NCBI GenBank assembly: GCA_005116835.1
Contig: SWDM01000012.1
Location: 36,454 to 100,453, forward strand
DNA length: 64,000 nucleotides
Source of the DNA: Nitrospira sp.
GTDB taxonomy: Bacteria > Nitrospirota > Nitrospiria > Nitrospirales > Nitrospiraceae
Direction of reading: 5' to 3'
Shown here piece by piece: positions 35,362-59,371 of this stretch. Position numbers and translations under genes: made by a program. The notes below the pieces were generated by a model. It did no database searches. It was not told the origin of the DNA and saw nothing but the letters and a program-made list of their open reading frames with translations. The first letter of the stretch is position 1; each line of letters begins with the position of its first letter.

Positions 35362-36308
35362 TTGCGACATTTTAAAAAAAGCCGCGGTGTTCTTTGCCAA
35401 GGAGTCGCGGTGAAGTACCGGTTCATGCAGACGCATCAGTGGGAGTTTCGTGTGACGCGAATGTGTCAGGTACTTCGGGTTAGCCGGAGTGGGTTCTATG
35501 CCTGGCAGCATCAGGGGGGCGTGTGCACGGGCGCAGGCGAATCAAGCGCTCATAGATCGGATGCGGGTGCTTCATCAGCAGACGCGGGCTGCCTACGGAG
35601 CGCGCAAGATGTGGCAACTGCTGACGCGCGAAGGCCTGGTCTGTGGGCGACACCGCGTGGCGCGACTGCGGCGGCTGGCCGGCATTGTGGCGTTGCGCCG
35701 CCAGCGCTATATTCGCACCGTGCAGGTGCGCCAGCACGAGACGCCACCGATCCTGAATCGTCTTGACCAGCAGTTTACCGTGTCGGCTAAGAATCGGGTA
35801 TGGGCCGGAGATCTGACGTTCGTGCCGACCCGCACGGGCTGGCTCACCGTGGCAGTGTTACTGGATCTCTACTCGCGGCGGGTCGTGGGGTGGGCCATGA
35901 GTCCGCGCCAAACGCTCTCAGTCGTCGTAGAGGTGTGGTGGATGGCCTGGCGGCGGCGCCACCCAGCACCGGGACTGATACATCATAGCGACCAAGGCAA
36001 TCAGTATCGTGTGACGCTGTATCAGACGCTCTTAGCCCGTCGCGGGGTGGTCGTCAGCATGAGTCGGAAGGGCAACTGTTATGACAATGCTCCCGTGGAA
36101 AGCTTCTTCAGTTCGCTGAAGAACGAGTTGGTGCACCATCGGCAGTTTCAGAATCAGGCGGAGGCCCAGGTGGCGATTGTGGAGTATATTGAACGGTTCT
36201 ATAACCGGCAGCGCTTGCATCAGGCGCTGGGCTATCGCAGTCCAGAAGAGTTCGAGCGGCAGGAGCCTGACTCTCAATTCACGTGTCTGTTATTCCGGGG
36301 CCACCTCA
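35362..36308 (+). mobile_element. IS3-family remnant: orfA reduced to its last 15 codons, orfB frameshifted
   Basis: DILKKAAVFFAKESR(stop) with an A7G slippery run at 35374-35381. orfB has ...VTRMCQVLRVSRSGFYAW | ...ARAQANQALIDRM...DLTFV...HSDQGNQY...NCYDNAPVESFF (DDE). The frame break is in the G6 run at 35514-35519. Confidence 0.75.
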
Positions 36309-36428
36309 AACTGACCCCGTGTTTTCGCACCGTAAACGGAGAGGGTCTAGCTTATATCATACCGAGCAATCCTGAAAAGACTTCCGCCCGTGTGTCTCAC
36401 AATAACTTTAACCAGTAAGGAGTCGAAA

Positions 36429-36680
36429 ATGACACCAATGCTAGACGGCAATAGTGCAACGGTCGAGGATATTCATCAAGCCCTAGGGAATCAGAGTATG
36501 TCTCCCGTGTGGAGAAGCAGCATGACAAGTTTTTACACGATGCCAGAATTGACAAATTGGGTTACTCAAGGATTAACCCGGCTTGGGGTTAACGCGGATC
36601 GTGCAAAGGTTTCTTTCATCATCGGGGCTGATCAAAGTGGGAAGCCATGGTATGGCGCGCTAATTTTTTGGTTGGGGTAA
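36429..36680 (+). CDS. Hypothetical small protein
   Basis: AAGGAG lies 6 nt upstream of ATG 36429. 83 aa, AT-rich. No family recognised. Confidence 0.4.
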   Translation: MTPMLDGNSATVEDIHQALGNQSMSPVWRSSMTSFYTMPELTNWVTQGLTRLGVNADRAKVSFIIGADQSGKPWYGALIFWLG

Positions 36681-36786
36681 TTATTGGGGGTAACGTGTTT
36701 CAGAAATAAGACTGCATCGAGCAATTTAAGTAAGGTACTGGCTTCATTGTCTCTACGATGAGGTGCATGGGTTGCACCATCTATCC

Positions 36787-38307
36787 TCACTTTGGCAATG
36801 AAACTCTCATTTCCGCCGTGACCCCTATCTGATTCGCTTCCGCAGTGCCATTTGAGGGAATAACTGACGTCTTCACGATATCGGGGTTGATCCGATGCTC
36901 TCTGAGCGCCGCTTGGATTCTAATAAGCCGAGTTGTTGCCATTGCCACATTTTCTTGGCCATAAGCCACCAGGCGGATCTCTACAATATTTTCAGGCTTC
37001 AGGGATTGAAGAAACGTGTTCAGCGGTTTCGGCGGTCGATCTTCTTCATTCTGATAGTCTAATCGTATGGACTGTTTTTTTGTAGGCCTCAGCGCTAGAT
37101 GTTTGGATGCGATATAGCCCGTCATGCCATTTTTACGCCGGGCTAAAGTCCACTCAGCGGCCTCACTAGGAGGAGGTAAGAATGCGTCTAGCTCGACGCC
37201 TCGATTGAAGGTTGCAAGGACTTGCCCACTTGAGGATGCCGATTGTCTGAACTTTACCGCGTCACCTGCGACCATGACCTGCCGGAAAGACTCTTGCAGT
37301 GATGCCAAGGACCGACTTCTATTTTTACCAGACCGAGCTTTTTCCGAATAATATCCGGCGGGATATGAGTCGATATATGTTTTATACTGATCTGGCCCAG
37401 CCGTAGAGGAATCTATTGTGTCCCATACTTTTTTTTCTTCATTAAATGTTTGAATGGTTGGCGAGAAATAAAACTCTGCACCGCCCTTATTAAGGTATAT
37501 GGGGTCTTGTTTCTGGTCATCGGAGACACCTTCGTTAAGTCGCTTGAAATACTTTGAAACATTACCGAATGTCTTGGCAATTGGCTCATTCTTTAGCTTC
37601 ATGGATTCTGCTAGCGCTTCAGCGTATGGGCTGTTATTTCTATTGCCATCTTTAGCCTTCTGGCCTACGTCTGCGGAGGTAGCAAAGGAAATGTCGGGTG
37701 GTCCTTTGAAGCGTATCCCTGCCGTGACCTCTACAATCTCACTCTTTCCAAGAGTGGGAAGCTTCCCTAAACCTGGATCCCTACACGCATCCAGAATAAC
37801 AATGTGATATACGTCTGGCATTGCTGCTAGGGCATCAGAGAGTAGATCCATCGGGAGGAGCTCTTCTCTGATATCCCGGCTATATAGTGCCATTCCATCA
37901 TAGGGAACGAGATAATCACTGCCGCTATATGAAAGGCCATGTCCGGCAAAGTAGATTAGACTTGTACCGCCTGTTTGTTTCACATGCAGAACATAGTCAT
38001 ACAAAACCCTCTTAAATGTCTGACGAGTTAACGGTGTTTGATCGCTTTTTGGAAAAACGTCAAAGCCAAGGCCTTGAAGAACGGTGGTGATCAACTGCAC
38101 ATCTTTCGTTGCATTAGGTAAGCGAGGGAATGTGGCTTCACCGTAGGTCGAGATACCAATCACTAGGGCTGATCGCGGAGCAAGTTGCGCACCGTCCATG
38201 CCCTTGAAGTAGAATTCTTCTTCAGCGACGGCGACACCTAGTATCCCAATACCCCAGGTACACGCCATAGCTACTTCGAATACGGCCTTTCCCAATAAAT
38301 TGAACAT
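36787..38307 (-). CDS. Caspase-family (peptidase C14) protein with N-terminal signal/anchor and SH3b-like C-terminal region
   Basis: Catalytic dyad contexts IYFAGHGLS and IVILDACRD. Hydrophobic N-terminus, then a later ...GDAVKFRQSASSSGQVLATFNRGVELD...MTGYIASKHL SH3b-like segment. Confidence 0.8.
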   Translation of the reverse strand: MFNLLGKAVFEVAMACTWGIGILGVAVAEEEFYFKGMDGAQLAPRSALVIGISTYGEATFPRLPNATKDVQLITTVLQGLGFDVFPKSDQTPLTRQTFKRVLYDYVLHVKQTGGTSLIYFAGHGLSYSGSDYLVPYDGMALYSRDIREELLPMDLLSDALAAMPDVYHIVILDACRDPGLGKLPTLGKSEIVEVTAGIRFKGPPDISFATSADVGQKAKDGNRNNSPYAEALAESMKLKNEPIAKTFGNVSKYFKRLNEGVSDDQKQDPIYLNKGGAEFYFSPTIQTFNEEKKVWDTIDSSTAGPDQYKTYIDSYPAGYYSEKARSGKNRSRSLASLQESFRQVMVAGDAVKFRQSASSSGQVLATFNRGVELDAFLPPPSEAAEWTLARRKNGMTGYIASKHLALRPTKKQSIRLDYQNEEDRPPKPLNTFLQSLKPENIVEIRLVAYGQENVAMATTRLIRIQAALREHRINPDIVKTSVIPSNGTAEANQIGVTAEMRVSLPK

Positions 38308-38319
38308 GGAAAGCCTCCA

Positions 38320-39330
38320 CTAATCTTTGGGATAAAGCTGACGTTGTTGATTGAGTAAATCTCGGAAGCCGCTAAAACGCTTGGCACCGAGAAGCGTATC
38401 GATGCTTCGGAGTCGTTGACCATTATTCGGGCGGCTCCGATAAGCATCTTTCATCGCTTGCTTATCTGTTGGAGAAAGATCGGGGGGTTGCACAATACTG
38501 CAATGTTCAGGGTCACCATCAGTAAACATCGCTGGCGGAAAGGAATAGTGCATGATAGAGCGATTGTCGTATGCGGTATATGTGTAGGCATGTTGACCAG
38601 TGCTTAACACTTCATCCTTCAACCGTTCCATGTTGAAGTGCATGGATTTTTTCTTTTCCTCCAATGTAGACCCAGGCCATTGATAAGACGTCAGTATTTT
38701 GTCCCAGTTCCATTTTGTGCATGGACTCGCTGGGCTTTGATGCTCATGATGGAACCCAACGGCATGTCCAGTCTCATGTTCAGTGAGTTCCTTGATTGTT
38801 TGATCATCGGGCACCGGGCGTGTATCGAAGTCGAGGTTCATACTGTTTTCAGGAAAAACGGCATCGCTCATCGTTCCGATTTGAGACCAATGGCCTCCGC
38901 CACGGACAAATCCAATCCTGATATTGTAATGTGTAATACCATCGCACTCTTTGAAAGTTTGCGGCCGACCATTCGATGGGTCGATTTGACCTCCAAAGGC
39001 AAACGTCACATTCCCTTGGCTCGCAGCTGACCACTCCATCATAGCTGCCGCAATCTTAGTGCGAAGCTCAACAGGACCTTTGTTGAAGCAAACCGTTATC
39101 TGAGCTGGAATCGGCCAGATAAATGCGTTCACAAGTACGCCACGAGTTTGTGCATCCCCTTCAGTAATATAGGCCCTGTTGAAACTTTTCACTGATTCAG
39201 GAATTTCAGGGCTTGTTAGGTCGTGCATAAGACCGGGGAGGTCATGTGCGAAACTCGTCGCACTAGAAAACGTTGTTGCCGCGAATATCATAAGACAAGG
39301 GAGCAACAAGGAAAGTCGTAGGGCATTCAT
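38320..39330 (-). CDS. Astacin-like (M12A) zinc metalloprotease, secreted
   Basis: HETGHAVGFHHEHQ (HExxHxxGxxHE) plus the SIMHY Met-turn. Signal peptide MNALRLSLLLPCLMIFAATTFSSATSFA. Confidence 0.8.
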   Translation of the reverse strand: MNALRLSLLLPCLMIFAATTFSSATSFAHDLPGLMHDLTSPEIPESVKSFNRAYITEGDAQTRGVLVNAFIWPIPAQITVCFNKGPVELRTKIAAAMMEWSAASQGNVTFAFGGQIDPSNGRPQTFKECDGITHYNIRIGFVRGGGHWSQIGTMSDAVFPENSMNLDFDTRPVPDDQTIKELTEHETGHAVGFHHEHQSPASPCTKWNWDKILTSYQWPGSTLEEKKKSMHFNMERLKDEVLSTGQHAYTYTAYDNRSIMHYSFPPAMFTDGDPEHCSIVQPPDLSPTDKQAMKDAYRSRPNNGQRLRSIDTLLGAKRFSGFRDLLNQQRQLYPKD

Positions 39331-39564
39331 TACAGGTCTCCTTCTTTACATGGACACTTCGGGTAGTACTGTCCACATGGGAACAATGTGCGTTTCCTTA
39401 TCAATAACTACAACTGGGCTTGTAAGCCCGCATCGCAAGGATGGGACACAGAACGAGGAACCCAGATTCTCTGGGCCGTCAGTTATGGTATGCGTGTCTC
39501 TGAGTATGCAGGGCGCCTCTGGGTGCTTGACATTCAAGACTGTTGCTTTCTTTCACTTACCTGC

Positions 39565-41274
39565 CTAGGGAACCGTAGCTGATAAATTCCTGGCCTTCTG
39601 TTCGGCAATTTCTTGTTCCAATTTCATGATCTTTAGACGCTGTATCAGTAGTTGCTCCTGCGTGCCGAGACTTTCCAGTTCCACTTCCGATGAAGTGGCG
39701 GTACCGGTACGTACAGCGTCGAGCCGTTGTTGATCACGAATTAACTGCAACTGAGCAGACACCAAGGCCTGCTGTAACTCTGCTTCCGTCTTTGCAGCCG
39801 TGGCATTGGCTTGCACCTTTGAAAGAGCCAAATCAGATTTGGCCTTATCAAGGGTTACTTGTGCTGTCGCTTGCTCAAGCAGCGCCTTGTTTGCCGCAAT
39901 CCGATCATCTCGTTTGTCTTTCTGCAACTGCAGATAAGTTCCAGCTGCATCACGTACAGTCGCGGAGGCCGATTCTGCCTTCGACTTTGCTCGGAATGTT
40001 AGTTTGCTCGGAGTCCCCGTGGCTCCATTAAATGCCAATTCAATTGAGTTCTCGTCAAATACTATGTTGTCTAAATTGATTGAGCCGATTGGGCCAAATT
40101 GCGGAATTTGCGTTGACTTTTCAAGCAGCAATTCCGCCTGATTCGACGAACTCCGATCATGCTTGAAATGAAGTTTGGCAACAGCGGCCACAGGGATTCG
40201 ATAGGCGATGCCGATCTTCTTGGAATCTGGGCCTATTGCCCCTTGGTTTATATCGATGGCCCGGCCCTTAGGAATCTCAAGAGTCATTATGACTACCGGT
40301 AGGTTTTCTTCTTTGAAATCAAGGTTTCCGCCAACTATCTTTGAAAGATCATCAGCTGTTATTCCAACGTCCATAGCCAAACCATCATGTGTTATCGCGC
40401 CTTGGTTGTTACGAATAATACTCGGAACAAAATCTTTCGAAGCCACAATGACCAGTTGACCCTTCGCTTCAGCGAGTTCTTTTGTTTTTTGTTGGGTTTG
40501 AGACTCACCTAAGTCTTTCAGCTTTTTCTCAGCTTCCCCCAGTTCCTTTCGATAGGCATTGACTTCAGTAAGCAAGTTATCTCTATCTTTTGGGGTACCC
40601 AATTTTTCATAGATTACAGTTAAATCCATGAAAGCCTTTATCCGGCGATCCATCTCTCCGATGTGAAGTTCGGCCGCTGCCCTTTCGTCATCCTTTAATT
40701 TTTCAGCTTCTAACTTACTTTTCGCGGTGCGTATTCTATCTAACGCTAGCTTGATCTGTTCACATGGATCCGGGGGTGGTGTGGATGACTCGGTAGTTGC
40801 TGGTACGGTTGAGAGTGGCGGGATAGATCCTGGCGCGCCTGGGAGAGCAATTGCCCTGGCAATACTGGCAGCAGCGGTACCTGCATTACGAATAACCGCT
40901 CCTGTCTGATCGGCGATTGAAGCATTCACACTAGTAAGCAGGCCAGCTTCAGATAACTGAAACTCGGTATTGGCCACCTTGGTTAACGCATTTAACCGTT
41001 GATAGTCGATGGTATAGGCCTCGGCACCAATGAGCGATTCCGTAAAAGATGCACTGACCTTCGTATCGAGTTTACCCTTGCCACTAGTTTGGTCGACGGT
41101 GCACCCTGTAATCTCATAGATTGCCTTGACCGCAAACTGCTTCGCCGGTAAGCGATAGGTTAAGCCTGACGGAGTATTAGTTTGACTATCGAGTCTTACG
41201 CTTTGAAGCGATGTACAGCCAGGGATCACAATGCAGCATAGCCCAGCAGTTACCAACATAGTTTTTCCGCTCAT
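39565..41274 (-). CDS. Large coiled-coil lipoprotein, unknown function
   Basis: AAGGAG upstream of ATG 41274, then MSGKTMLVTAGLCCIVIPGC with a lipobox. Beta-rich domains are interrupted by long K/E/Q/A-rich heptad segments. The 651-aa track ORF is trimmed. Confidence 0.7.
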   Translation of the reverse strand: MSGKTMLVTAGLCCIVIPGCTSLQSVRLDSQTNTPSGLTYRLPAKQFAVKAIYEITGCTVDQTSGKGKLDTKVSASFTESLIGAEAYTIDYQRLNALTKVANTEFQLSEAGLLTSVNASIADQTGAVIRNAGTAAASIARAIALPGAPGSIPPLSTVPATTESSTPPPDPCEQIKLALDRIRTAKSKLEAEKLKDDERAAAELHIGEMDRRIKAFMDLTVIYEKLGTPKDRDNLLTEVNAYRKELGEAEKKLKDLGESQTQQKTKELAEAKGQLVIVASKDFVPSIIRNNQGAITHDGLAMDVGITADDLSKIVGGNLDFKEENLPVVIMTLEIPKGRAIDINQGAIGPDSKKIGIAYRIPVAAVAKLHFKHDRSSSNQAELLLEKSTQIPQFGPIGSINLDNIVFDENSIELAFNGATGTPSKLTFRAKSKAESASATVRDAAGTYLQLQKDKRDDRIAANKALLEQATAQVTLDKAKSDLALSKVQANATAAKTEAELQQALVSAQLQLIRDQQRLDAVRTGTATSSEVELESLGTQEQLLIQRLKIMKLEQEIAEQKARNLSATVP

Positions 41275-41526
41275 TTGCTTCACTCCTTTATCTCTGAGCT
41301 GTTGGGGCGATGAAAAGGGGTCGAGAGTCTTTGTTTGGGAATGATGGCTTGTAACGCGGGACATGGCCACCAGAGTTTCGTAGAGGTTCTTGGCAAAGAT
41401 GGCGTTGCTGATGTGCCATGAGGGATTGGATATGCCAATCATTCCCTTGTGACATCGCATCCTGCATGAGGAGCTCCTACTCACGTCTAGTGCGCGCGAT
41501 AGTCCTGCTGTGTTGCTCATGCTTTG

Positions 41527-41805
41527 CTATTCCTTCGTCGCCGTACTCTTGCGAGTCCACGGCACTTGTTGACGCAGTATCTTTTGGGCTCCGACGAGGT
41601 TGGGGGTCTGATCGTATTTCAGTGTTTTCAGCCGGGCCTGGCTGCCTTCCTTCAACTGGGGGAACGTCGGTTTTCTGCTCCGACGGCGTTGAGTTGACGG
41701 TCGACCTAGGCTCGGAGCACTGCCAGTATCGAAGAGTATTCGAAGCGTTGTGATTGATGATCGCGTGGGATGTGGAAGGGTATCAGGAATCATTTCGTAT
41801 TCCAT
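41527..41805 (-). CDS. Questionable hypothetical ORF
   Basis: 92-aa ORF with basic, low-complexity composition. No RBS seen. Confidence 0.2.
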   Translation of the reverse strand: MEYEMIPDTLPHPTRSSITTLRILFDTGSAPSLGRPSTQRRRSRKPTFPQLKEGSQARLKTLKYDQTPNLVGAQKILRQQVPWTRKSTATKE

Positions 41806-41951
41806 GATGCGCGGGACGATAGCACAAGTCGTTAAAGATTCCTATCCAAACTGTTAGGTCTCGTTAAATATTTTCATATTATTCAAAGGAGTGATATTTC
41901 GCAGTTAAGCAAATTGCAGGCCTCGCCTGAAAGTATTCATTCATGGCTCTG

Positions 41952-42074
41952 GCAGGATGCTGAAAAAGTTCGCCAGCATCGTTCTCGTATCGCTTCCAAA
42001 GACCGTGAAACGCGAAACGCGAGGATCAACCTCGGAGCTGCGGCCTTACTGGACAGCCTTTTTGAACATCCTGC
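41952..42074 (+). repeat. PE copy E (type 2 core)
   Basis: gcaggatgctgaaaaagttcgccagc...ccgtgaaacgcgaaacgcgagg...cctcggagctgcggcc...cctttttgaacatcctgc. Confidence 0.8.
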
Positions 42075-49151: not shown

Positions 49152-49224
49152 TTATTTGACTCTCTTTCCCCCTCTTCATATAATGCCGCTCGATAGTTGA
49201 TTTCGACAGCCTTTCCAGACACTT

Positions 49225-49617
49225 ATGGCTTCCTCGACCAAGACAGTCCTCCCAGGAAAATGGGGCAAGATTCGCGCGGAACTTGCCCATGCCTTTTCGA
49301 CACACTCCGGGCCTGAGCGGTTCACGGGCGAAGATATTGAGTTACTTGAACGGATGGCCGATGCGGTGGTGAAACGGGGCATGGCTGCTCCAGCCACGGT
49401 TTTTCTGGAATCGCTTGGCCCCATGAACTTCCTCGGCAGCCAGGCACTGTATTTCCTGACCCCCATCGTTGAATGGGCCTTTCAGGCGATAGAAATCGAG
49501 CAGGTGGCTCGGTTGCTTGAACGTCGCGATACGATTGCCCGTCTTATCGCTATCATTGAAACAAAGGCTACCCCCCCAATTCCTCCCCCGGCTCCGGAAG
49601 GAGCCTCCGCTCCATGA
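49225..49617 (+). CDS. Hypothetical protein (first gene of the 49.2-58.0 kb cluster)
   Basis: 130-aa ORF with a Pro-rich tail. No family recognised. Confidence 0.5.
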   Translation: MASSTKTVLPGKWGKIRAELAHAFSTHSGPERFTGEDIELLERMADAVVKRGMAAPATVFLESLGPMNFLGSQALYFLTPIVEWAFQAIEIEQVARLLERRDTIARLIAIIETKATPPIPPPAPEGASAP

Positions 49618-49625
49618 CAAAATGC

Positions 49626-49710
49626 CGTGAAACGTTAAACGTGAAAGGTGAAACGTCTCTCGTGAAGCGTAGTTCGCGAACGACGAGATACGAGATGCGA
49701 ACGACGTTTG
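49626..49710 (+). repeat. Tandem run of about 12 degenerate heptamers
   Basis: gtgaaac gttaaac gtgaaag gtgaaac gtctctc gtgaagc gtagttc gcgaacg acgagat acgagat gcgaacg, with strict 7-nt phase. Confidence 0.7.
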
Positions 49711-49744
49711 TCCAGTTACACATTTCAGATCAAGAGCCTGCCGC

Positions 49745-51568
49745 ATGACGATCCAGGAATCAGGCAAGATCACCCACCCCCTCAACGTGATTGTGGCTAC
49801 CGACTGCGGCAGTACCACGACCAAAGCCATTTTGATCGAGAAGGTCGGCGACGAATACCGGCAAACCTATCGCGGTGAAGCGCCGACGACGGTGGAAGCG
49901 CCCTTCGAAGATGTGACGCGCGGGGTCCTGAATGCGATCGCGGAGATTGAAGAGCTGTCCGGTCGGAAAATCCTCGACGGCGACAAGATCATCACACCCT
50001 GTCGCGATGCCAAGACCGGCGTCGATATTTATATTTCTACCAGCAGCGCGGGTGGCGGATTGCAAATGATGGTGACCGGGGTCGTGCAGAATATGACGGG
50101 CGAGAGCGCCCAACGAGCCGCACTTGGGGCCGGCGCGATTGTTATTGACGTGCTCGCGTCGAACGATGGCCGGTTGCCGCATGAGAAGATCGAACGTATC
50201 AGGACCATGCGTCCGGACATGATCTTGATGTCCGGTGGGACGGACGGCGGCGCGGTCACCCATGTGGTCGAAATGGCGGAATACATATCGGCAGCGGAGC
50301 CACGCCCACGCTTCGGGGCGACCTACAAGCTCCCGTTGGTCTACGCAGGCAATAAAGATGCGCAGCCGCAAGTGAAGAAGATTCTGGGGGAGAAGACCGC
50401 ATTGGTGCTGACCGATAATATTCGTCCAGTGTTGGAGCGGGAGAACCTCGCGCCGGCGCGCAACAAGATCCACGACTTGTTTCTCGAACATGTCATGCAG
50501 CAAGCGCCGGGCTACAAGAAACTGATCGAGATGGCCGGCGCGCCGATCATGCCGACGCCGGCGGCGGTCGGCGTCATCATGGAAACGATCGCCAAGCGGG
50601 AGCATCTGAACTTGATCGGGGTGGATATCGGAGGCGCCACCACGGACGTGTTCTCGGTGTTTGAAGGACTCTTCAATCGAACCGTCAGCGCGAACCTTGG
50701 AATGTCGTACAGTATTTCCAATGTGCTGGCGGAAGCAGGGCTCGCCAATATCATGCGATGGGTGCCCTTCACGATCGACGAACAGACGCTTCGCAACCGG
50801 ATCAAGAACAAGATGGTCCGGCCGACGACGATTCCGCAGACGTTGGACGAGTTGCAGATCGAACATGCAATTGCCCGCGAAGCGCTCCGGCTTGCCTTGA
50901 TCCATCATAAGTCCCTTGCGACGGCTCTCAAGGGCATACAGCAAGAACGCACGATTTCTGATGTGTTCGAGCAGCAGCAGTCCGGCAAAACGCTGATCGA
51001 CATGCTCAAGCTGGATTTGATCGTCGGAAGCGGCGGGATTCTGTCCCATGCGCCGCGTCGTGTGCAATCGATGCTGATGATGGTGGATGCCTATGAGCCA
51101 CTCGGGGTGACGAGGCTCTCAGTGGACAGCATCTTTATGATGCCGCATCTGGGTGTCCTCTCGACGATCAACGAAAAGGCGGCAACCGATGTGTTCGTTC
51201 GCGATTGCATGGTCTACTTGGGGACCTGCGTTGCGCCGATCGGGCAGGGAAAGGACGGGGAACGGTGCGCAGATTATGTCATCACGTTCCCGGATGGCCG
51301 AGTGGACAAGGGGCAACTGTTGTTCGGCGACCTGCGGCTGGTGCCCCTGGCCGGCGATCAGAAAGCGTCGATCACGATCCAGCCGGCCAAACAGGTCAAT
51401 CTTGGGGCCGGGGCGGGACTGTCGGTCACGCGAGAGGTGCAGGGCGGTGTGGTGGGCCTCATGCTCGATAGCCGAGGGCGTCCGTTACAGTTGCCGTCCG
51501 ATCACAATGCCAGAGTCGCAGCCTTGATGAAATGGTACAACGCAGTCGGGCTATATCCGACGGCATAA
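49745..51568 (+). CDS. GlmL/MutL-like (glutamate mutase accessory protein family) ASKHA-fold ATPase
   Basis: VATDCGSTTTKAIL (phosphate-1), GVDIGGATTDVF (phosphate-2) and SGGTDGG. 607 aa. No B12 mutase gene nearby. Confidence 0.75.
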   Translation: MTIQESGKITHPLNVIVATDCGSTTTKAILIEKVGDEYRQTYRGEAPTTVEAPFEDVTRGVLNAIAEIEELSGRKILDGDKIITPCRDAKTGVDIYISTSSAGGGLQMMVTGVVQNMTGESAQRAALGAGAIVIDVLASNDGRLPHEKIERIRTMRPDMILMSGGTDGGAVTHVVEMAEYISAAEPRPRFGATYKLPLVYAGNKDAQPQVKKILGEKTALVLTDNIRPVLERENLAPARNKIHDLFLEHVMQQAPGYKKLIEMAGAPIMPTPAAVGVIMETIAKREHLNLIGVDIGGATTDVFSVFEGLFNRTVSANLGMSYSISNVLAEAGLANIMRWVPFTIDEQTLRNRIKNKMVRPTTIPQTLDELQIEHAIAREALRLALIHHKSLATALKGIQQERTISDVFEQQQSGKTLIDMLKLDLIVGSGGILSHAPRRVQSMLMMVDAYEPLGVTRLSVDSIFMMPHLGVLSTINEKAATDVFVRDCMVYLGTCVAPIGQGKDGERCADYVITFPDGRVDKGQLLFGDLRLVPLAGDQKASITIQPAKQVNLGAGAGLSVTREVQGGVVGLMLDSRGRPLQLPSDHNARVAALMKWYNAVGLYPTA

Positions 51569-51689
51569 ATGATGAATGTTGAATTTTGAATGATGAATGG
51601 TAAACGAGGATTCATAGAAAGCACAGGTTTGTGGGGAGCCGAGGGGATGAGTTTCTTAATTCATCATTCCACATTCCAGATTCCACATT
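51569..51689. repeat. Inverted heptad-type repeat pair (TGAATGA word)
   Basis: atgatgaatgttgaattttgaatgatgaatgg faces ttaattcatcattccacattccagattccacatt. Starts 1 nt after the TAA of the upstream gene. Confidence 0.65.
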
Positions 51690-51699
51690 GAGCTGAAGT

Positions 51700-52833
51700 A
51701 TGGCCCATTCCTATACTCCAGGCTTAACCGTGACAGAGCACACGACAGTCCGACGTCGTCGGATGTTGTCGTTGCCTGGCACTGTATTGGTTGCGGCTGG
51801 GGAGGTCGTGCGGGCGAATCAGGCGGTCGCTCGCGCGGAACTGCCAGGGAAGGTCTATCCCTTGAATCTCGCCAATCAGTTGGGGGTGGGACCGGACGAG
51901 ATCCAGGAGTATTTGATCAAGAAGGCCGGCGACAGGGTGCAGAAGGACGAGATTCTGGCGGAGAACAAACCGCTTATCAAGTGGCTCAAGACGGAGGTTC
52001 GCTCACCTGTGACAGGTGTTGTGGAATCTGTGTCCATGGTCACGGGGCAGGTGTTGTTGCGGGAGCCGCCGCGTGTATTGGAGTTGTTGGGTTATGTGGA
52101 CGGGCGCATCGTCGAGGTGATCCCACAGCAGGGTGCCGTGGTCGAAACTGATTGCAGTCTGGTGCAGGGCATCTTCGGCATCGGTGGGGAAACCAGGGGT
52201 GAGATCATGCTCGCGGTGACATCGCCGGACGAAGCGCTGACCCCTCGTCAACTCACGGCAGAGATGAAAGGCAAGATCGTTGTGGGAGGTTCCTTTATCT
52301 CTTCCGACGCGCTCACTCGAGCAAAAGAGGTGGGAGTAGCAGGCTTGGTGATCGGCGGCATTCACGATAAGGATTTGCGCGCATTGCTGGGCTACGACCT
52401 TGGCGTGGCCATCACCGGTACGGAGCAGGTCGGCTTTACCCTGATCCTCACCGAAGGATTCGGCGCCATTCCCATGGCCGGTAAAACATTCACGTTGCTT
52501 TCCGCCCATGCAGGTCAGCCTGCTTCTATTTCAGGCGCCACACAAATTCGTGCCGGTGTCATTCGTCCGGAGATCATCATCCCCACACAGCTAAGTGCAG
52601 TTGGCACTCTCAGTGCGGTTGCCGTGCCGCAGCGGGAAGGTATCAGGATCGGTGACCAAGTTCGGATCATTCGAGATCCCTTGTTCGGCAAGATCGGAGA
52701 AGTCTCAAGTCTGCCATCGGAGCTCCAGAAGATTCCGACCGAGAGCGAGGTACGTGTGATGGAAGTTCGCTTTGCCGATGGCAGCAAGGCTGTGATTCCG
52801 CGGACGAATATTGAATTGATTGAAGGAGCTTAG
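51700..52833 (+). CDS. Hypothetical soluble protein with barrel-sandwich-like N-region and KOW-like C-terminus
   Basis: 377 aa. ...VRSPVTGVVESV... hybrid-barrel-like segment and IGDQVRIIRDPLFGKIGEV KOW-like segment. Weak motif-level call. Confidence 0.6.
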   Translation: MAHSYTPGLTVTEHTTVRRRRMLSLPGTVLVAAGEVVRANQAVARAELPGKVYPLNLANQLGVGPDEIQEYLIKKAGDRVQKDEILAENKPLIKWLKTEVRSPVTGVVESVSMVTGQVLLREPPRVLELLGYVDGRIVEVIPQQGAVVETDCSLVQGIFGIGGETRGEIMLAVTSPDEALTPRQLTAEMKGKIVVGGSFISSDALTRAKEVGVAGLVIGGIHDKDLRALLGYDLGVAITGTEQVGFTLILTEGFGAIPMAGKTFTLLSAHAGQPASISGATQIRAGVIRPEIIIPTQLSAVGTLSAVAVPQREGIRIGDQVRIIRDPLFGKIGEVSSLPSELQKIPTESEVRVMEVRFADGSKAVIPRTNIELIEGA

Positions 52834-52959
52834 CGGGATGCTGAAAACGTCTGCCAGCTTCGTTCTCGGCTCTTCGAAATCCTCAACGTACCCCAGAGGG
52901 TACGCCTCCGGTTTCGACTCGCCTGCGGCCTTGCTGAACAGACGTTTTGAGCATCCCGC
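52833..52959 (+). repeat. PE copy I (type 1 core)
   Basis: Overlaps the last base of the upstream TAG. Both termini carry gcgggatgct / agcatcccgc and acgtctg / cagacgt variants. Confidence 0.85.
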
Positions 52960-52975
52960 CTTATGGAAGGCATTG

Positions 52976-54220
52976 ATGCTCCTGCTCATGACTGTTCTGA
53001 GTCAGTCATGGTCGCCGGTGTTTGCCCAAACCGACATCCAGACGAAGACGCCACTCGCGCCGCCGCAAGATGTTCGTGTGTTCGATACACCGAGCGATGG
53101 TGGCGATAGCCTAACCGTGATATGGGCTCCCGCTCCCTACGATAGTGCTGCGGTGAGGTATCAGGTATTACTCAGTGAGGGAACGTCGGTCGCAGATCCG
53201 GCTACCATGAAGGTCGTGGCGGAATTTCCGGCGAACCAGCGCTATGTCCGAGAATCCAAGTGGCCCTGGTGGACGAGGCCGGCGACCGGCGACCAGCACC
53301 AGTATACGCTGAGGAGTGGAAGGGGAGTCGAGCTGAAGAGCGGAACTCTATACAGCATCACCGTGGCTACGGTGCTGAACGACGAACGCAGCATTGCCGC
53401 GCCGGGACAGGCCGCGCCGGAACCGAATTGGATCAATTGGAACCAGATGAATAATCTTCTATTGGCGCTCCTGTTCGGCGGGATCGTGTTCTACGCCATC
53501 GGTACCGCCAGAAAACGTGAGATTTTCCTCCGGCGCATTCCCGGCCTCGATGCAGTGGATGAGGCGATCGGCCGCGCAACCGAGTTGGGTAAGCCGATTC
53601 TGTACATGACCGGCGCCCATGACATGAGCGATCCATCGACCATTGCGGCGGCGGTTATTCTTGGGCGTGTGGCCAAACGAGCGGCGGCCTATGAGACCGA
53701 TTTACTGGTACCCCACCGCGAGCCGATCACCATGGCGGTGTGCCAGGAGATTACGAAGCAGGCCTATCTGGAAGCAGGCAAACCCGATCTTTACAAGGAC
53801 GATTCCAATTTCTTCATTACGTCGGATCAGTTCAGCTATACCGCGGCGGTGGACGGCATCATGTTGCGGAAAAAACCTGCAGCGAACTTCTTTATGGGAC
53901 ATTATTTTGCCGAGGCATTGCTTCTGACGGAAACGGGCGCGAGCACCGGCGCAATCCAAATCGCCGGGACGGACTCCGATCATCAGCTGCCGTTCTTCGT
54001 CACTACCTGCGATTACACCTTGATCGGGGAAGAACTCTACGCTGCCAGCGCGTACCTCTCCAGAGAGCCGGTGCAGGTCGGCACATTGCGTGGGCAAGAC
54101 ATCGGCAAAGCCCTCATCCTCGGCGTCCTTGGTATCGGTACGATACTGGCTACTCTTGGGATCCTGTTCGATGCCCAGTGGCCAAAATTATTCCTAGACT
54201 TTTTCAGGGACGTGAAATGA
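52976..54220 (+). CDS. Membrane protein: signal peptide, FN3-like domain, TM, large conserved domain, C-terminal TM
   Basis: MLLLMTVLSQSWSPVFAQ; PPQDVRVFDTPSDGGDSLTVIWAPAPY...YQV (FN3-like); hydrophobic helices at about aa 150 and at the C-terminus. The N-terminal track extension lies in PE copy I and is rejected. Confidence 0.6.
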   Translation: MLLLMTVLSQSWSPVFAQTDIQTKTPLAPPQDVRVFDTPSDGGDSLTVIWAPAPYDSAAVRYQVLLSEGTSVADPATMKVVAEFPANQRYVRESKWPWWTRPATGDQHQYTLRSGRGVELKSGTLYSITVATVLNDERSIAAPGQAAPEPNWINWNQMNNLLLALLFGGIVFYAIGTARKREIFLRRIPGLDAVDEAIGRATELGKPILYMTGAHDMSDPSTIAAAVILGRVAKRAAAYETDLLVPHREPITMAVCQEITKQAYLEAGKPDLYKDDSNFFITSDQFSYTAAVDGIMLRKKPAANFFMGHYFAEALLLTETGASTGAIQIAGTDSDHQLPFFVTTCDYTLIGEELYAASAYLSREPVQVGTLRGQDIGKALILGVLGIGTILATLGILFDAQWPKLFLDFFRDVK

Positions 54221-54867
54221 TCTTTCTCCGACGACAGGGTCCGCTCCTGGTTACCCTCATCACCGGGCTCGTGTTTGCGGCTCAATACTATGTGCCGCAC
54301 CCGGCTTCGGAGCAGATGTTGACCTCCGTCACGAAATGGCTCCAGATCATCGGTGGGTTCGCGCTGGTGCTGGGAGTCAGCAGTCTGTTCCACGTCCATG
54401 CCGCCAAGATCCGGCGCAAAGAAGCGGGCTGGGGTTATAGTTTTGTCCTCTATGTCGGCATGCTGGGGACTATTGCGCTCGGCTTCTGGTCTAACGGCAA
54501 GGAAGCAATCGACGGCACCATGACGGCATTCGGGTGGATCTATAACTATATGATGGTCCCGCTGCAGGGAACGATGTTTGCGATTCTCGCCTTCTTCATC
54601 GCCTCGGCAGCCTATCGCTCGTTCCGCGCGCGGAGCCGTGAGGCGGCGGTGCTGCTCATTGCGGCGGTGATTGTCATGATGGGTCGCGTCCCGCTTGGAG
54701 AATATCTGATCCCGATCAGCGGCGACCTGTCCCAGTGGATCTTAAATGTGCTGAATGCGTCGGTGCGGCGCGCGATCCTGATCGGCGTCAGTCTCGGCAC
54801 AGTTGCGCTCTCCATCAAGATCATCTTCGGCATGGAACGGTCGTATCTTGGGGGAGGCAAGGAGTGA
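54217..54867 (+). CDS. Integral membrane protein (about 5 TM)
   Basis: The ATG overlaps the upstream TGA (ATGA). 216 aa, hydrophobic throughout. Confidence 0.6.
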   Translation: MIFLRRQGPLLVTLITGLVFAAQYYVPHPASEQMLTSVTKWLQIIGGFALVLGVSSLFHVHAAKIRRKEAGWGYSFVLYVGMLGTIALGFWSNGKEAIDGTMTAFGWIYNYMMVPLQGTMFAILAFFIASAAYRSFRARSREAAVLLIAAVIVMMGRVPLGEYLIPISGDLSQWILNVLNASVRRAILIGVSLGTVALSIKIIFGMERSYLGGGKE

Positions 54868-54874
54868 TGACGAG

Positions 54875-54955
54875 CGATCAGCTATCAGCCGTCAGCTCTC
54901 AGCTCCGGAATCGAGGACTCGCCTGTTACCTGAAGGCTGATTGCTGATGGCTGAG
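54875..54955. repeat. Inverted heptad-type hairpin (TCAGC word)
   Basis: gcgatcagctatcagccgtcagctctcagctc faces cctgaaggctgattgctgatggctgag. Confidence 0.65.
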
Positions 54956-54981
54956 TGCCCGGTGGCGACGAAGGAGCGACC

Positions 54982-55827
54982 GTGACTTTCGCTGAACGCA
55001 TGCTCAAGATCGACCGGCGGATCATCTTTCTGGTGATCGGTCTCTGCACGCTTATCCCGTTACTCTATCCGGTCGGGTTGCCGATCAAGATTTCGCCGGA
55101 GGTGCGCGGGGTCTACGACCATATTGAATCGCTCCCTGAGGGATCCGTGTTTTTGCTCTCGCTGGACTTCGATCCGGCGTCGAAGCCTGAACTGATGCCG
55201 CAATCGATTTCATTGCTGCGCCATGCGTTCCGGAAGAAGCTTCGCGTCATTGCGTTGACGCTCTGGGTATCCGGCACCGGCATGGCCGACCAGGTCGTCA
55301 CGCAGGTCGCCCGGGAGATGGGCAAGGAGAGCGGAAAGGATTATGTATTCCTCGGCTGGAGCCCAGGTGGAACCGCTGTCATCATCAACATGGGGCAGGA
55401 TCTCTATGGCGCGTTCCCTGCCGACTACAACGGTAAACCTACAAAGGGACTATCGGTATTGCAGGGTGTCGCCAGCCTGCGCGATGTGAACTATGCCGTC
55501 AGCCTGGGCGCAGGCAATCCCGGCGTCGAAGCCTGGTATGTGTTCGGCAAGGACAAATACAAGTTCGAACTCGGCGGCGGCTGCACGGGCGTCATGGCGC
55601 CTGGACTCTATCCGTTATTACGGAGTGGTCAGATCAACGGTCTGATCGGCGGCCTGCGCGGCGCAGCAGAATATGAAATCTTGATCGATCAAAAGGGCAA
55701 AGCCGTTGCCGGGATGGATGCCCAGTCGGCCACCCATTTGGCCATCATCGTGCTGGTCGTCCTGTGTAACCTGTTCTATTTCGCATCGCGCAATATTGCC
55801 AGACGGCAAAGTCAGTCAGGGGCATAA
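54982..55827 (+). CDS. Bitopic membrane protein (N- and C-terminal TM helices around a soluble domain)
   Basis: GTG 54982 lies 5 nt after AAGGAG. No family recognised. Confidence 0.55.
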   Translation: MTFAERMLKIDRRIIFLVIGLCTLIPLLYPVGLPIKISPEVRGVYDHIESLPEGSVFLLSLDFDPASKPELMPQSISLLRHAFRKKLRVIALTLWVSGTGMADQVVTQVAREMGKESGKDYVFLGWSPGGTAVIINMGQDLYGAFPADYNGKPTKGLSVLQGVASLRDVNYAVSLGAGNPGVEAWYVFGKDKYKFELGGGCTGVMAPGLYPLLRSGQINGLIGGLRGAAEYEILIDQKGKAVAGMDAQSATHLAIIVLVVLCNLFYFASRNIARRQSQSGA

Positions 55828-55833
55828 CGATCG

Positions 55834-56586
55834 ATGCCGATTGAAACTATCATCGGGGGCTGGGTGGCGACGGGGTTAACCCTCTTCATCTTTTCATTTC
55901 TCTATAAGGATAACCCGCTCTTCAAGCTGGCGGAGAATCTCTACGTCGGCGTGTCGGTCGGCTACACGATCATCAAGACCTACGACACCGTAGTCGTCCA
56001 GCTCATCTGGAAGCCGATCGTCGAGAACGGGGAATGGACATTGTTGATTCCAGTCGCCATCGGGATGCTCATGCTCACACGTTATGTTCCGAAAGCCGCC
56101 TGGATCTCGCGATACGCATTTGCCTTCATTGTGGGCGTCGGGTCAGGGCTCGCCATCCCTCGGACCATCTCCTCCTTTATCTTGAAACAGATCGAAGATA
56201 CGGTTCGCCCGCTACTGACGTTGATACCGGGCGAGGGTGTGACCTTTACTTGGAGCCTGTTGAATCCCGCTAGTAGCGTGAACACCATCATTATCCTGAT
56301 CGGCGTCAGCTCCGTGCTGTTCTATTTCTTTTTCTCTGTCGAGCACAGGGGGCCTGGCAAGGTTGTGGCCCGCACGGGCATCATGTTCCTGATGATCGCC
56401 TTCGGCGCGGCCTTCGGCTACACCGTGATGGCCCGCATGTCGCTCTTGATCGGGCGATTGACCGACCTCATCGAGTTCACCGATCCCTCCTATGGCAGGC
56501 CGAGCCTCTGGCTCGCTGGGTTGACCATTCTCACCCTAGTGGTGATGGCTCGCCGGTCCAGAAGCCATCCACCCGAAGAAAAGTAG
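55834..56586 (+). CDS. Integral membrane protein (about 7 TM)
   Basis: 250 aa. Starts 6 nt after the upstream stop. No family recognised. Confidence 0.6.
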   Translation: MPIETIIGGWVATGLTLFIFSFLYKDNPLFKLAENLYVGVSVGYTIIKTYDTVVVQLIWKPIVENGEWTLLIPVAIGMLMLTRYVPKAAWISRYAFAFIVGVGSGLAIPRTISSFILKQIEDTVRPLLTLIPGEGVTFTWSLLNPASSVNTIIILIGVSSVLFYFFFSVEHRGPGKVVARTGIMFLMIAFGAAFGYTVMARMSLLIGRLTDLIEFTDPSYGRPSLWLAGLTILTLVVMARRSRSHPPEEK

Positions 56587-56668
56587 GTTTGTTTTGTTTG
56601 TTTGGTTGAACGAGACTGCCTAATGAATCAAATCAACAAAATAAACCAGATGAACCAACCAAACCAGC
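56587..56668. repeat. Inverted heptad-type hairpin (AACCAGA / GTTTGTT word)
   Basis: gtttgttttgtttgtttggttgaac faces caacaaaataaaccagatgaaccaaccaaaccagc. Begins at the base after the TAG. Confidence 0.6.
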
Positions 56669-56726
56669 TCCCGGTTGCAGCTAGCGCGACTCCCTCGCTA
56701 CAATGGGCGCTCAAAAAAGGAGCGTC

Positions 56727-57974
56727 ATGACCACATCTCCCAGCATCGACAGAGATCCCAAACAGTATCCCGCTCTCCGCAACCTGCAATTCTCGCCGAT
56801 CAAAGAGGGTGAGGAGCAGTACATGGTCTTGTGGGATCCGACTGGACTAAGCAAAGAGAAGCTCGTGTTGCCGCTCAACTATTTTTTCATCATTCAGCAT
56901 TTCGACGGCGAGCACTCGCTGGCTGAAATCGGAGCGCTCTATCTCAAACGATTCGGTGAATTTCTGGTGCCCAGCAAAATCGATCAGCTGGTGTTCGATC
57001 TGAATGAGAAGCTGTTCTTGGAAGGTCAGCGAGCTGAAGACGCCCGCAGGCTGGCGCGGGAGACCTATCGCCAAAGCCCGCTACGCCGCGCAGCCTTTGC
57101 CGGGCGGGGGTACGAGGCAGACGGAGCGAAACTGAAAAAACAAATCGACGGATTCTTTACGTCCCAAGAAGGACCGGACTTCAAACCGTCAGAGCATGCG
57201 GGGAAAAAGATCAAGGGCCTCGTCGCCCCGACCTACGACCTGAAACACGCAGGACCGATCTATGCCTGGGCCTATAAAGAGCTGCAAGATGCGGAGGAGC
57301 CGGATCTATTCGTGATTATCGGCACTGCTTCTGCCGGACTGGACCATGTATTTGCCGTGACGGACAAGGATTTCGAAACGCCTCTCGGTGTCGTGTCCGC
57401 AGACCAACCGATTCTGAGCCAACTCAAGGCCAAGCTCCCGGATTTCTTTGAAGACGATCTTTGCCATCAGGCCGAGCAGGCTGTGGAATTTCAGCTTCCG
57501 TTTCTTCAGGACATCGTGGGGAAGAAGAAGCCTTTCACTATCGTGCCGATCTTGAGTGCTTTTTCTGCGGCGAGTCTGGGAGATCCAACCGTGCGCCAAT
57601 CGGTCGATCAGTTCTTGATCGGACTTAGTGAGATCCTCTCACAATCGGGCAGGGCTTACTGTGTGATCGCAGCGGGAGACCTGGCGCATCTGGGTATGCG
57701 CTACGGAGACAAGGCGCCTCCAACGGACTTTTCCTTTCATCGGTGTATGCAGTTCGACCTGGAAATGTTGAAACCGGTGGAGGAGCGCCAGCCGGAAGAG
57801 TTTGCCAACTACATCAGGAAAGAACAGGACCAGCGCCGGATCTCCGGCTTCTCCCCCATCTATTCCTTACTACGTTTGATCGAAGCGGAGAGCGGGCAGG
57901 TCTTACGCTATGACCGCGGGATCACCGACCAATACAATTCCACCGTGACTTACGCATCGATGGCATTTTTCTAG
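56727..57974 (+). CDS. MEMO1-family protein (AmmeMemoRadiSam system protein B type) with an N-terminal extension of about 140 aa
   Basis: C-terminal 270 aa follow the MEMO pattern (RRAAFAGRGYE...LVAPTYDLKHAG...GDLAHLGMRYGD...SGFSPI). N-terminal extension is LWDPTGLSKEKLVLPLNYFFIIQHFDGEHSLAEI... Confidence 0.75.
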   Translation: MTTSPSIDRDPKQYPALRNLQFSPIKEGEEQYMVLWDPTGLSKEKLVLPLNYFFIIQHFDGEHSLAEIGALYLKRFGEFLVPSKIDQLVFDLNEKLFLEGQRAEDARRLARETYRQSPLRRAAFAGRGYEADGAKLKKQIDGFFTSQEGPDFKPSEHAGKKIKGLVAPTYDLKHAGPIYAWAYKELQDAEEPDLFVIIGTASAGLDHVFAVTDKDFETPLGVVSADQPILSQLKAKLPDFFEDDLCHQAEQAVEFQLPFLQDIVGKKKPFTIVPILSAFSAASLGDPTVRQSVDQFLIGLSEILSQSGRAYCVIAAGDLAHLGMRYGDKAPPTDFSFHRCMQFDLEMLKPVEERQPEEFANYIRKEQDQRRISGFSPIYSLLRLIEAESGQVLRYDRGITDQYNSTVTYASMAFF

Positions 57975-58636: not shown

Positions 58637-59023
58637 GAGTGAACCTCCTTAAGGATGATGCCATTCAACACCTCAATATGGTCACTAATCTGCTGCCATG
58701 GCCGCGTCATGTGGAGAGAGCGATGAATCAGGCGGAAATAAAAATCCGGAAATACAGCACGATGGCGGCTGCGAGGTTAGCCAACTTGCTTGAGAAAGCC
58801 AAGGTCAGCCTGTGAAAACGAGCGATTTTTATTCTGCGCTCATGCGTTCTCCTCTTGCACCTTCATCCTCGCCCGGCTAAAATAGCATGAGTTTTCCTGA
58901 AAATAAGTGCTCTAGAACCGCTGGAGCACCAACGGCTGTCTAGAGGACAGGTGGCACTCTCGTCATTCTGTTAACTAACCCTGAATATTTCCCTATCTTT
59001 GTGGGAATAAGGAGTTGAGGGTC

Positions 59024-59371
59024 ATGGCACTACTGATTACCGACGAATGTATTAACTGTGGAGCTTGTCTGCCAGAATGTCCGAATGAAGCGATCTTCGA
59101 AACTCGCGGCGACGCGGAGGCGAAGGGAAATCATGTGGGCGACGGTCAGGGAGTCGGAGACGCTATTTACGTGATTACCCATGAGCGGTGTACTGAGTGT
59201 GTCGGTCATTTTGACGAACCTCAATGCACGGCGGTTTGTCCGGTGGATAATTGTTGCATCGCTGATCCAGCCTATCCGGAGGCCACGGATATTCTGCTGG
59301 AAAAGGCGAAGAAACTCAATCCTGACAAGGCCATCGACCCGGCAAAAGTTTGGAGCGGCGTGCGGAACTAG
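59024..59371 (+). CDS. YfhL-type 2x[4Fe-4S] ferredoxin
   Basis: CINCGACLPECP and CTECVG...CTAVCP. AAGGAG lies 9 nt upstream of ATG 59024. Confidence 0.85.
   Translation: MALLITDECINCGACLPECPNEAIFETRGDAEAKGNHVGDGQGVGDAIYVITHERCTECVGHFDEPQCTAVCPVDNCCIADPAYPEATDILLEKAKKLNPDKAIDPAKVWSGVRN

Follow-up and report, generated by a model that had tools for sequence, protein, structure and literature searches.

A GlmL/MutL-family ASKHA ATPase set and four inner-membrane proteins make up a conserved seven-gene module, probably an unstudied membrane machine, in Nitrospirota and other phyla

The characterised members of the MutL/GlmL family are described as chaperones that reactivate B12-dependent (glutamate) mutases (PMC4682846). 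We analysed a relative of these proteins that is encoded in a 64,000-nucleotide stretch of Nitrospira sp. DNA (contig SWDM01000012.1, positions 36,454 to 100,453 of the forward strand; hereafter the window), where it is the second gene of a cluster, g1 to g8. Like the family, the g2 product spans the Pfam MutL model end to end and keeps the motifs of the ASKHA fold. It differs in scoring below the NCBIfam cut-offs, in carrying a C-terminal domain of ~120 amino acids (aa) with conserved cysteines, and in adjoining g1 and g3, and usually g4 to g7 as well, with no B12 mutase alongside. By analogy, the reactivases DdrAB/PduGH and EutA share with g2 and g1 the pairing of a ~600-aa ASKHA ATPase with a ~120-aa partner and a presumed ATP-driven remodelling of a partner protein; in the Nitrospira locus, however, no cofactor enzyme is recognised and the partners are membrane proteins. 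The MreB-MreC-MreD, PilM-PilN-PilO and FtsA systems likewise place an ASKHA gene alongside bitopic or polytopic inner-membrane partners, but g2 is of the hydantoinase/GlmL branch and its partners show no homology to theirs. We find that g1 to g7 are a conserved, chromosomal, modular system, made of a GlmL-family ASKHA ATPase set and a four-protein inner-membrane set. It matches no described system and is probably an unstudied membrane machine.

The g4 product carries the Pfam domain DUF6754, which comprises 2376 clusters at 50% identity and is found in at least 596 species-level genomes of a GTDB-based collection; the names of the cluster members said little more about taxonomy. We fetched the 80 best of these genomic matches, which number at least 596, and searched their open reading frames (ORFs) with iterative profiles of g1 to g8; the resulting loci are cited by number. 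A sequence-only reading of the window had raised conservation of the GlmL-like gene's neighbourhood across phyla, and g1 to g7 did recur in the same order, on one strand, in at least nine phyla. The arrangement was present in Nitrospirota, Candidatus Methylomirabilis (L037, Methylomirabilota), Elusimicrobia (L042, Elusimicrobiota), Binatia (L043), Planctomycetota (Scalindua and Anammoxibacter, L046-L048; Phycisphaerae, L081), Latescibacterota (many loci), Gemmatimonadota (L056, L071), BRC1 (L069) and Armatimonadetes (L077, Armatimonadota). An identical order in dozens of genomes spread over many phyla is far beyond what chance would produce. The flanks of the module differ between genomes (for example, L001 and the window), and in 19 loci without complete sets of Opp-type transporter genes they consist of a mixture of housekeeping genes, among them pgk, ffh-rimM-trmD and greA. 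No copies of the module were found on plasmid or viral contigs, and none of the eight proteins had a PADLOC match, so we rejected the idea of a defence system or mobile element. Our search of the literature, in which coverage of subscription journals was thin, returned nothing relevant on DUF6754 or this MutL subfamily.

The cluster had been described from its sequence as an eight-gene unit. Our comparison reduces the core to seven genes, with the MEMO gene g8 linked in Nitrospirota only: it was located after g7 in 30 loci, all from Nitrospirota, and never in the other phyla sampled. Since it was seen only with Nitrospirota loci, g8 is a lineage-specific addition outside the core, that is, a Nitrospirota-specific passenger or accessory. 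The prediction of an extended MEMO protein was itself correct, as g8 matched PF01875 at 129.9 bits (cut-off 27; E = 1e-37) over residues 130-420 and TIGR04336 (AmmeMemoRadiSam system protein B) at 104.7 bits against a cut-off of 26. No AMMECR1 or radical-SAM partner gene was annotated beside the g8 orthologue in L001, the one locus considered.

Within the core, consistent break points separate three sub-units, (g1, g2), g3 and (g4 to g7). Insertions occurred only between g2 and g3 (L052, L055, L056) or between g3 and g4 (L057, L068, L078, L086). The membrane genes g4 to g7 were present without adjacent g1 to g3 in WOR-3 (L059, L060, L065), Brocadiaceae (L049, L076) and L066, L079, L082, L039, L083 and L088, and the Brocadiia contig L084 had g1 to g3 alone. 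Two loci (L067:9566-16815 and L072:2421-10804) combined one g1 to g3 set with two divergent g4 to g7 sets sharing 38-50% identity, which is the pattern expected if one energising module serves paralogous membrane modules. A further small membrane gene, g0, stood directly 5' of g1 and overlapped its start in 18 loci (L050, L052, L054-L056, L058, L061-L063, L067, L069, L071, L073-L075, L077, L080, L081) from Latescibacterota, Gemmatimonadota, BRC1, Armatimonadetes, Phycisphaerae and unclassified metagenome-assembled genomes (MAGs). Its product of ~135 aa has two transmembrane (TM) segments and a C-terminal domain with the motif RY..P..Y.L...GVFLSPF..PSRLD.FRG; g0 was not found in the window or in Nitrospirota loci. 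Two individual arrangements are also on record. In L045:9060-13182 (a Binatia chromosome) and L070:30-4199 (a Myxococcales MAG), g4 to g7 come straight after g1, with no g2 or g3 between. In the Scalindua-like locus L086, a 121-aa gene with a 23S_rRNA_IVP Pfam match (L086:9592-9957) lies between g3 and g4.

The g2 product matched Pfam MutL at 435.9 bits (cut-off 27; E = 2e-130), with residues 16-487 aligned to positions 1-449 of the 450-position model. Its Pfam matches fell in four families, MutL, Hydantoinase_A (E = 5e-6), Hydant_A_N and BcrAD_BadFG; DDR and EutA were absent from these matches, which came from a general Pfam scan and no aimed profile comparison. Its NCBIfam scores were 238.1 for GlmL (NF040745, cut-off 475), 208.6 for Or-4 (NF040744, cut-off 600) and 170.5 for TIGR01319 (cut-off 204.05). 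The phosphate-binding motifs were intact, as first read from the sequence (DCGSTTTK, residues 20-27; DIGGATTD, 294-301), and the phosphate-1 (D20-K27), phosphate-2 (D294-D301) and adenosine (GSGG, 428-431) motifs were invariant in 18 g2 sequences from many phyla. The closest relatives are Nitrospira proteins (88-93% identity), identity to orthologues in other phyla is 58-73%, and mean column identity is 71%. The C-terminal extension (488-607) is also conserved: C488 never varies, C495 and C508 are retained in at least 90% (window 51206-51270), and together the three may bind a metal or a cluster. Sequence and profile searches of the PDB with g2, g3, g4, g5, g6 and g7 gave nothing meaningful.

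We found no B12 mutase or B12-binding domain in the window's ten largest other ORFs, and neither of them in the Pfam-annotated homologous loci (L001, L083, L084, L086-L088) or among the 25 commonest Pfam families of the flank ORFs, for which 146 families were matched. At the level of these loci, within the window's large ORFs and the Pfam-annotated loci, the earlier observation that no B12 mutase partner is present held. NCBI-derived annotation names relatives of g2 'glutamate mutase L' or 'methylaspartate mutase', and such names would suit a chance arrangement, with g2 a conventional GlmL whose B12 mutase partner is encoded at another site, next to membrane genes that have nothing to do with it. 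The seven-gene order across nine phyla refutes this, and the score of g2 at only half the GlmL equivalog cut-off, its extra conserved domain and the lack of a mutase in the loci examined also speak against it, leaving coincidence a negligible probability. We conclude that the g1 to g7 system is not a B12-mutase accessory.

A related but distinct possibility is that g2 and g1 act as a reactivase or chaperone that repairs, or loads cofactor onto, a membrane-bound enzyme composed of g3 and/or the DUF6754 domain of g4. As a full-length Pfam MutL member whose characterised kin reactivate glutamate mutase, g2 would suit such a role. The two genes also travel together, with g1 orthologues (no Pfam or NCBIfam match) directly 5' of g2 in 57 loci, and their product sizes (~120 and 600 aa) recall two-subunit reactivases. 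The three conserved cysteines in the C-terminal domain of g2, a possible metal site, would also be in keeping with it, as would Gly-rich motifs of the kind typical of active sites or cofactor loops. Such motifs are invariant in g3 (GIFGIGGE, TEGFG, SGATQIRAGVxRPE), and for g3 and g4 together the set includes GRATEMG and AGTD...QLPFF..CDYTLIGEELYAA, with CDYTL also named. However, neither a B12-binding, radical-SAM nor any other cofactor domain was detected in the seven proteins with Pfam and NCBIfam, no locus examined contained a mutase, and the account leaves four dedicated membrane proteins with periplasmic domains, and their duplication as a set, without explanation. We therefore consider a reactivase rather unlikely, though it is the leading rival to the reading that we favour.

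The soluble protein g3 had been read as containing barrel-hybrid-like and KOW-like segments, and both were recovered, as weak Biotin_lipoyl, RnfC_N and KOW matches and as a KOW fold in the AlphaFold model (mean predicted local distance difference test [pLDDT] 80.6). Among g3 orthologues, Pfam matches were to Biotin_lipoyl or RnfC_N in 17/20, to NQRA_N in 8/20 and to KOW in 5/20. Foldseek returned domain-level matches alone: the C-terminal domain to NusG/Spt5 KOW domains (KOW/SH3), a PA-like domain and, weakly, NqrA. Identity to orthologues in other phyla was ~47-59%. Lipoylation or biotinylation of g3 was considered and judged unlikely, as the lipoyl-like hairpin reads IKWLK, LRWLQ, WGIFH or FGLMR depending on the phylum, with no conserved Lys of the kind that carrier domains have modified at the hairpin tip (EAMKM or DKA). 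Separately, one BLAST cluster of homologous ORFs occurs beside the module in five loci (L052:2005-2853, L055:586-1461, L056:21-521, L067:16843-17703, L073:4996-5829), and Pfam places its L073 member, the single one scanned, among LplA/LipB-type lipoate/biotin protein ligases.

The N-terminal domain of g3 brings to mind a redox-driven ion pump related to Rnf/Nqr. These systems resemble the module in having a soluble subunit with a barrel-sandwich hybrid, two small subunits with six TM helices and a subunit with a periplasmic domain. Besides the RnfC_N or NQRA_N matches and the weak structural match to NqrA, the SGAT core of one g3 motif (residues 278-291, window 52531-52572) resembles the ApbE flavinylation site of NqrC/RnfG. 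In g3 itself there was no signal peptide and no FMN_bind match, and no ApbE gene was noticed nearby. Homology to Rnf/Nqr was rejected when hhalign comparison of g3 to g7 with Escherichia coli RsxA, C, D, E and G gave probabilities of at most 1.4%. Furthermore, g5 and g7 lacked Rnf-Nqr Pfam matches, g5 has no cysteines, no Fe-S or FMN_bind domain or redox cofactor motif turned up, and such a scheme has no room for an ATPase, making an Rnf/Nqr-type pump highly improbable.

According to the sequence-only reading, none of the four membrane proteins could be assigned to a family. This stands for g5, g6 and g7, which have no Pfam or NCBIfam match, and fails for g4, which matched DUF6754 (PF20539) at 383.7 bits (cut-off 27; E = 4e-115) over residues 201-450. 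Since DUF6754 has no described function, the four proteins fall in no well-characterised family, as that reading had anticipated. We inferred the topologies of g4 to g7 from hydropathy and positive-inside charges. The g4 protein consists of a signal-peptide-like segment (51-69), a periplasmic FN3 domain found by Foldseek, a TM segment (212-230), the cytoplasmic DUF6754 domain of ~200 aa and a second TM segment (432-450). Its AlphaFold model has a pLDDT of 69 and Foldseek matched the FN3 domain only; the DUF6754 domain shows 47-61% identity across other phyla. Some relatives of g4 reach ~1276 aa, and no Pfam domain was found in the long N-terminal extensions of DUF6754 relatives.

The other three membrane proteins are also conserved, with identities to other phyla of 41-61% (g5), 32-62% (g6) and 38-54% (g7). 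About five TM helices had been proposed for g5; we found ~6 hydrophobic segments, with the N-terminus inside. The description of g6 as bitopic also required correction, as two TM segments (23-41 and 259-277) flank a domain of ~215 aa that is periplasmic by the positive-inside rule; none of 24 g6 orthologues had a Pfam match. PDB profiles gave no match for g7. With hhalign there was no support for a paralogous relation between g5 and g7 or between g4 and g6, although a beta-alpha-beta pattern after the first TM segment looks similar in g4 and g6. In a Planctomycetota MAG (L064:1255-2598), the periplasmic loop between TM3 and TM4 of g5 contains an inserted g6-like domain of ~200 aa, and a separate g6 is present too. 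This fusion supports both a physical association of g5 with g6 and the inferred topology.

When the non-module ORFs were clustered all-against-all, one recurrent set emerged, and Pfam identified it as an Opp/Dpp-type ATP-binding cassette (ABC) transporter comprising an SBP_bac_5 substrate-binding protein (SBP), two BPD_transp_1 permeases and two ABC_tran + oligo_HPY ATPases. Opp-type genes adjoin or interleave the module in 16/42 of the non-Nitrospirota loci, in four positions. An SBP gene is located just 5' of g1 in L054, L058, L063, L071, L074 and L075, and a complete Opp set stands 5' of the module in L045. The order is g1-g2-oppABC-g3..g7-oppDF in L055 and g2-g3-oppABCDF-g4..g7, with the complete set between g3 and g4, in L057 and L068. 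Two OppD/F-like ATPase genes come right after g7 in L048, L052, L056, L062 and L073, where no permease was found near g7-oppDF by BLAST of the whole loci and Pfam scans of selected L052 and L073 ORFs; in L069, an SBP gene and two ATPase genes follow g7 without permeases. The gaps of 12-71 nucleotides (nt) suggest that the Opp genes are probably co-transcribed with the module. Latescibacterota loci also carry TonB-dependent-receptor-like and giant peptidase genes 3' of the module.

These neighbours could be taken to mean that the module is itself a divergent ABC importer, with g5 and g7 serving as transmembrane domains for the OppD/OppF-like ATPases, g6 or SBP_bac_5 capturing the substrate, and g1 to g3 added on for regulation or substrate processing. 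The orphan ATPase pairs after g7 in five loci, with no canonical permease within 10 kb, and the permease-free L069 would fit this arrangement, as would the weak TMD0_ABC matches in 8/24 g5 orthologues. More generally, Opp/Dpp ABC and ECF-type transporters resemble g1 to g7 in having domains that face the periplasm, a pair of small polytopic proteins and a cytoplasmic ATPase set, in the occurrence of one ATPase set with two paralogous membrane sets (L067, L072) and in the interleaving of opp genes. They differ in that g2 is an ASKHA and not a P-loop ATPase and that g3, g4 and g6 have no counterpart. Moreover, BPD_transp_1 was not matched by any of 24 g5 or 18 g7 orthologues even at E <= 1, neither protein gave another permease signal, and no EAA-type loop was evident. 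Complete oppABCDF sets in L045, L055, L057 and L068 bring their own permeases, and Nitrospirota modules have no Opp genes nearby. We consider a divergent ABC importer improbable.

The proposal that an orphan ASKHA ATPase is tied to dedicated envelope proteins in an uncharacterised membrane-associated system was borne out by the checks on conservation, families and mutases. As to what such a system might do, the constant gene order, the short or overlapping junctions and the fusion of g5 with a g6-like domain in L064 argue that g4 to g7 would assemble into one inner-membrane complex. In this complex the FN3 and g6 domains would face the periplasm, and the highly conserved DUF6754 domain would lie on the cytoplasmic side, where g1 to g3 may dock on it. 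Binding and hydrolysis of ATP by g2 would then drive a conformational cycle of the membrane part. The substrate would be periplasmic, probably peptide-like or envelope-derived, and the system may share a pathway with Opp-type ABC importers. We favour a role in transport or processing because one ATPase set accompanies two paralogous membrane sets, because domains are exposed to the periplasm and because opp genes are repeatedly interleaved; that the module is an ATP-energised inner-membrane transport or processing complex tied to peptide-like substrates is nevertheless a tentative proposal, which we hold at somewhat less than even confidence. The fuller version is more doubtful: it would make the module a new class of inner-membrane machine, spread over many poorly studied diderm phyla, in which an ASKHA ATPase rather than a P-loop, P-type or rotary one energises a four-subunit complex that moves or processes a periplasmic substrate and is integrated with Opp-type peptide importers.

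Several observations weigh against a transport or processing complex. To our knowledge, no primary transporter is driven by an ASKHA ATPase, and none of the components resembled a known transporter or motor in Pfam, NCBIfam, PDB profiles or Foldseek. No Opp genes occur in the window or in any Nitrospirota locus, and at the level of loci g4 to g7 are found without adjoining g1 to g3 in WOR-3, Brocadiaceae and others. The most conserved stretch of g4 (ORF residues ~336-423, in DUF6754) was modelled with low confidence. Lastly, the only characterised relatives of g2 are described as chaperones that reactivate B12 mutases and not as motors for transport (PMC4682846).

The ASKHA fold of g2 and its very high conservation would also accommodate a cytoskeletal or envelope-structural function, in which g2 polymerises and is anchored through g3 and g4 to g7 in the manner of MreBCD or FtsA. 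Several housekeeping neighbourhoods and the envelope-exposed FN3 region, variable in length among the long g4 relatives, agree with this. By its Hydantoinase_A match, however, g2 lies nearest the hydantoinase/GlmL branch rather than those that form filaments, and no member of the hydantoinase/GlmL branch is known to polymerise. Duplicated membrane modules and the linkage to Opp genes would be unexpected as well. A cytoskeletal function thus seems an outside prospect, with no evidence specific for it, and our leaning is toward transport or processing.

The predicted layout of eight co-directional ORFs on the plus strand between 49225 and 57974 agreed with the ORF listing (Table 1), and two close junctions were confirmed by reading the sequence: g4 and g5 overlap in a start/stop ATGA at 54217-54220, and 6 nt (55828-55833) separate g6 from g7. 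The remaining intergenic gaps are 127, 131, 87 and 116 nt. With g4 starting at TTG 52820, g3 and g4 overlap by 14 nt; ATG 52838 is an equally plausible start. The putative promoter is a near-consensus candidate by its match alone. A search of the cluster region against Rfam matched no family.

Table 1. Coordinates of the cluster's features in the window.
Feature	Position	Strand	Description	Motif or basis
Promoter candidate	49156..49184	+	Sigma-70-like, TTGACT-17-TATAAT; ~40 nt 5' of g1	11/12 consensus matches
g1	49225..49617	+	130 aa, soluble, probably helical	AHAFA...PA(I/V)xFLES..PLNFLGSQ
g2	49745..51568	+	607 aa, MutL/GlmL Pfam-family ASKHA-fold ATPase with ~120-aa C-terminal extension (488-607)	PF13941
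g3	51700..52833	+	377 aa, soluble; barrel-sandwich hybrid (lipoyl-like), beta region, alpha/beta, C-terminal KOW/SH3-like	Pfam, AlphaFold, Foldseek
g4	52820..54220	+	466 aa from TTG; signal-peptide-like, FN3, TM, DUF6754, TM	PF20539, Foldseek, hydropathy
g5	54217..54867	+	216 aa, ~6 TM; PHP motif, FFIASAAYRxFRAR loop	Alignment, hydropathy
g6	54955..55827	+	290 aa, TM, periplasmic alpha/beta domain, TM; LLRHAF and GAAEYE motifs	Alignment, hydropathy
g7	55834..56586	+	250 aa, 6 core TM and optional seventh; FLYKDNPLFKxAE, SVEH and MARMSLLIGR motifs	Alignment, hydropathy
g8	56703..57974	+	423 aa, MEMO family with ~125 extra N-terminal residues	PF01875

Elsewhere in the window, the guanine-plus-cytosine content dips to 0.48 at 36001-42000, compared with ~0.55 in the remainder, and this region may be an acquired island. 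Two minus-strand ORFs lie in it, one with a caspase domain (Peptidase_C14) at 36787-38307 and one of 651 aa, without a Pfam match, at 39565-41520. On the 3' side of the MEMO gene, the translation of an ORF at 59015-59371 has two CxxCxxCxxxCP-like cysteine motifs, which suggests a 2x[4Fe-4S] ferredoxin.

If g1 to g7 do form one machine, it would be a widespread and strongly constrained component of the envelope or of transport. The organisms that carry it, among them Nitrospira, anammox bacteria, NC10, Latescibacterota and Gemmatimonadota, are important in the cycling of nitrogen and carbon, and the conserved 'hypothetical' genes of these lineages are mostly unexplored. The reading of the GlmL/MutL family would change as well, as the names 'glutamate mutase L' and 'methylaspartate mutase' mislead metabolic reconstructions. 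DUF6754 is now placed in a defined genomic setting alongside obligate partners, and an ASKHA ATPase working with a membrane complex would, if true, be a new way to couple ATP to membrane work.

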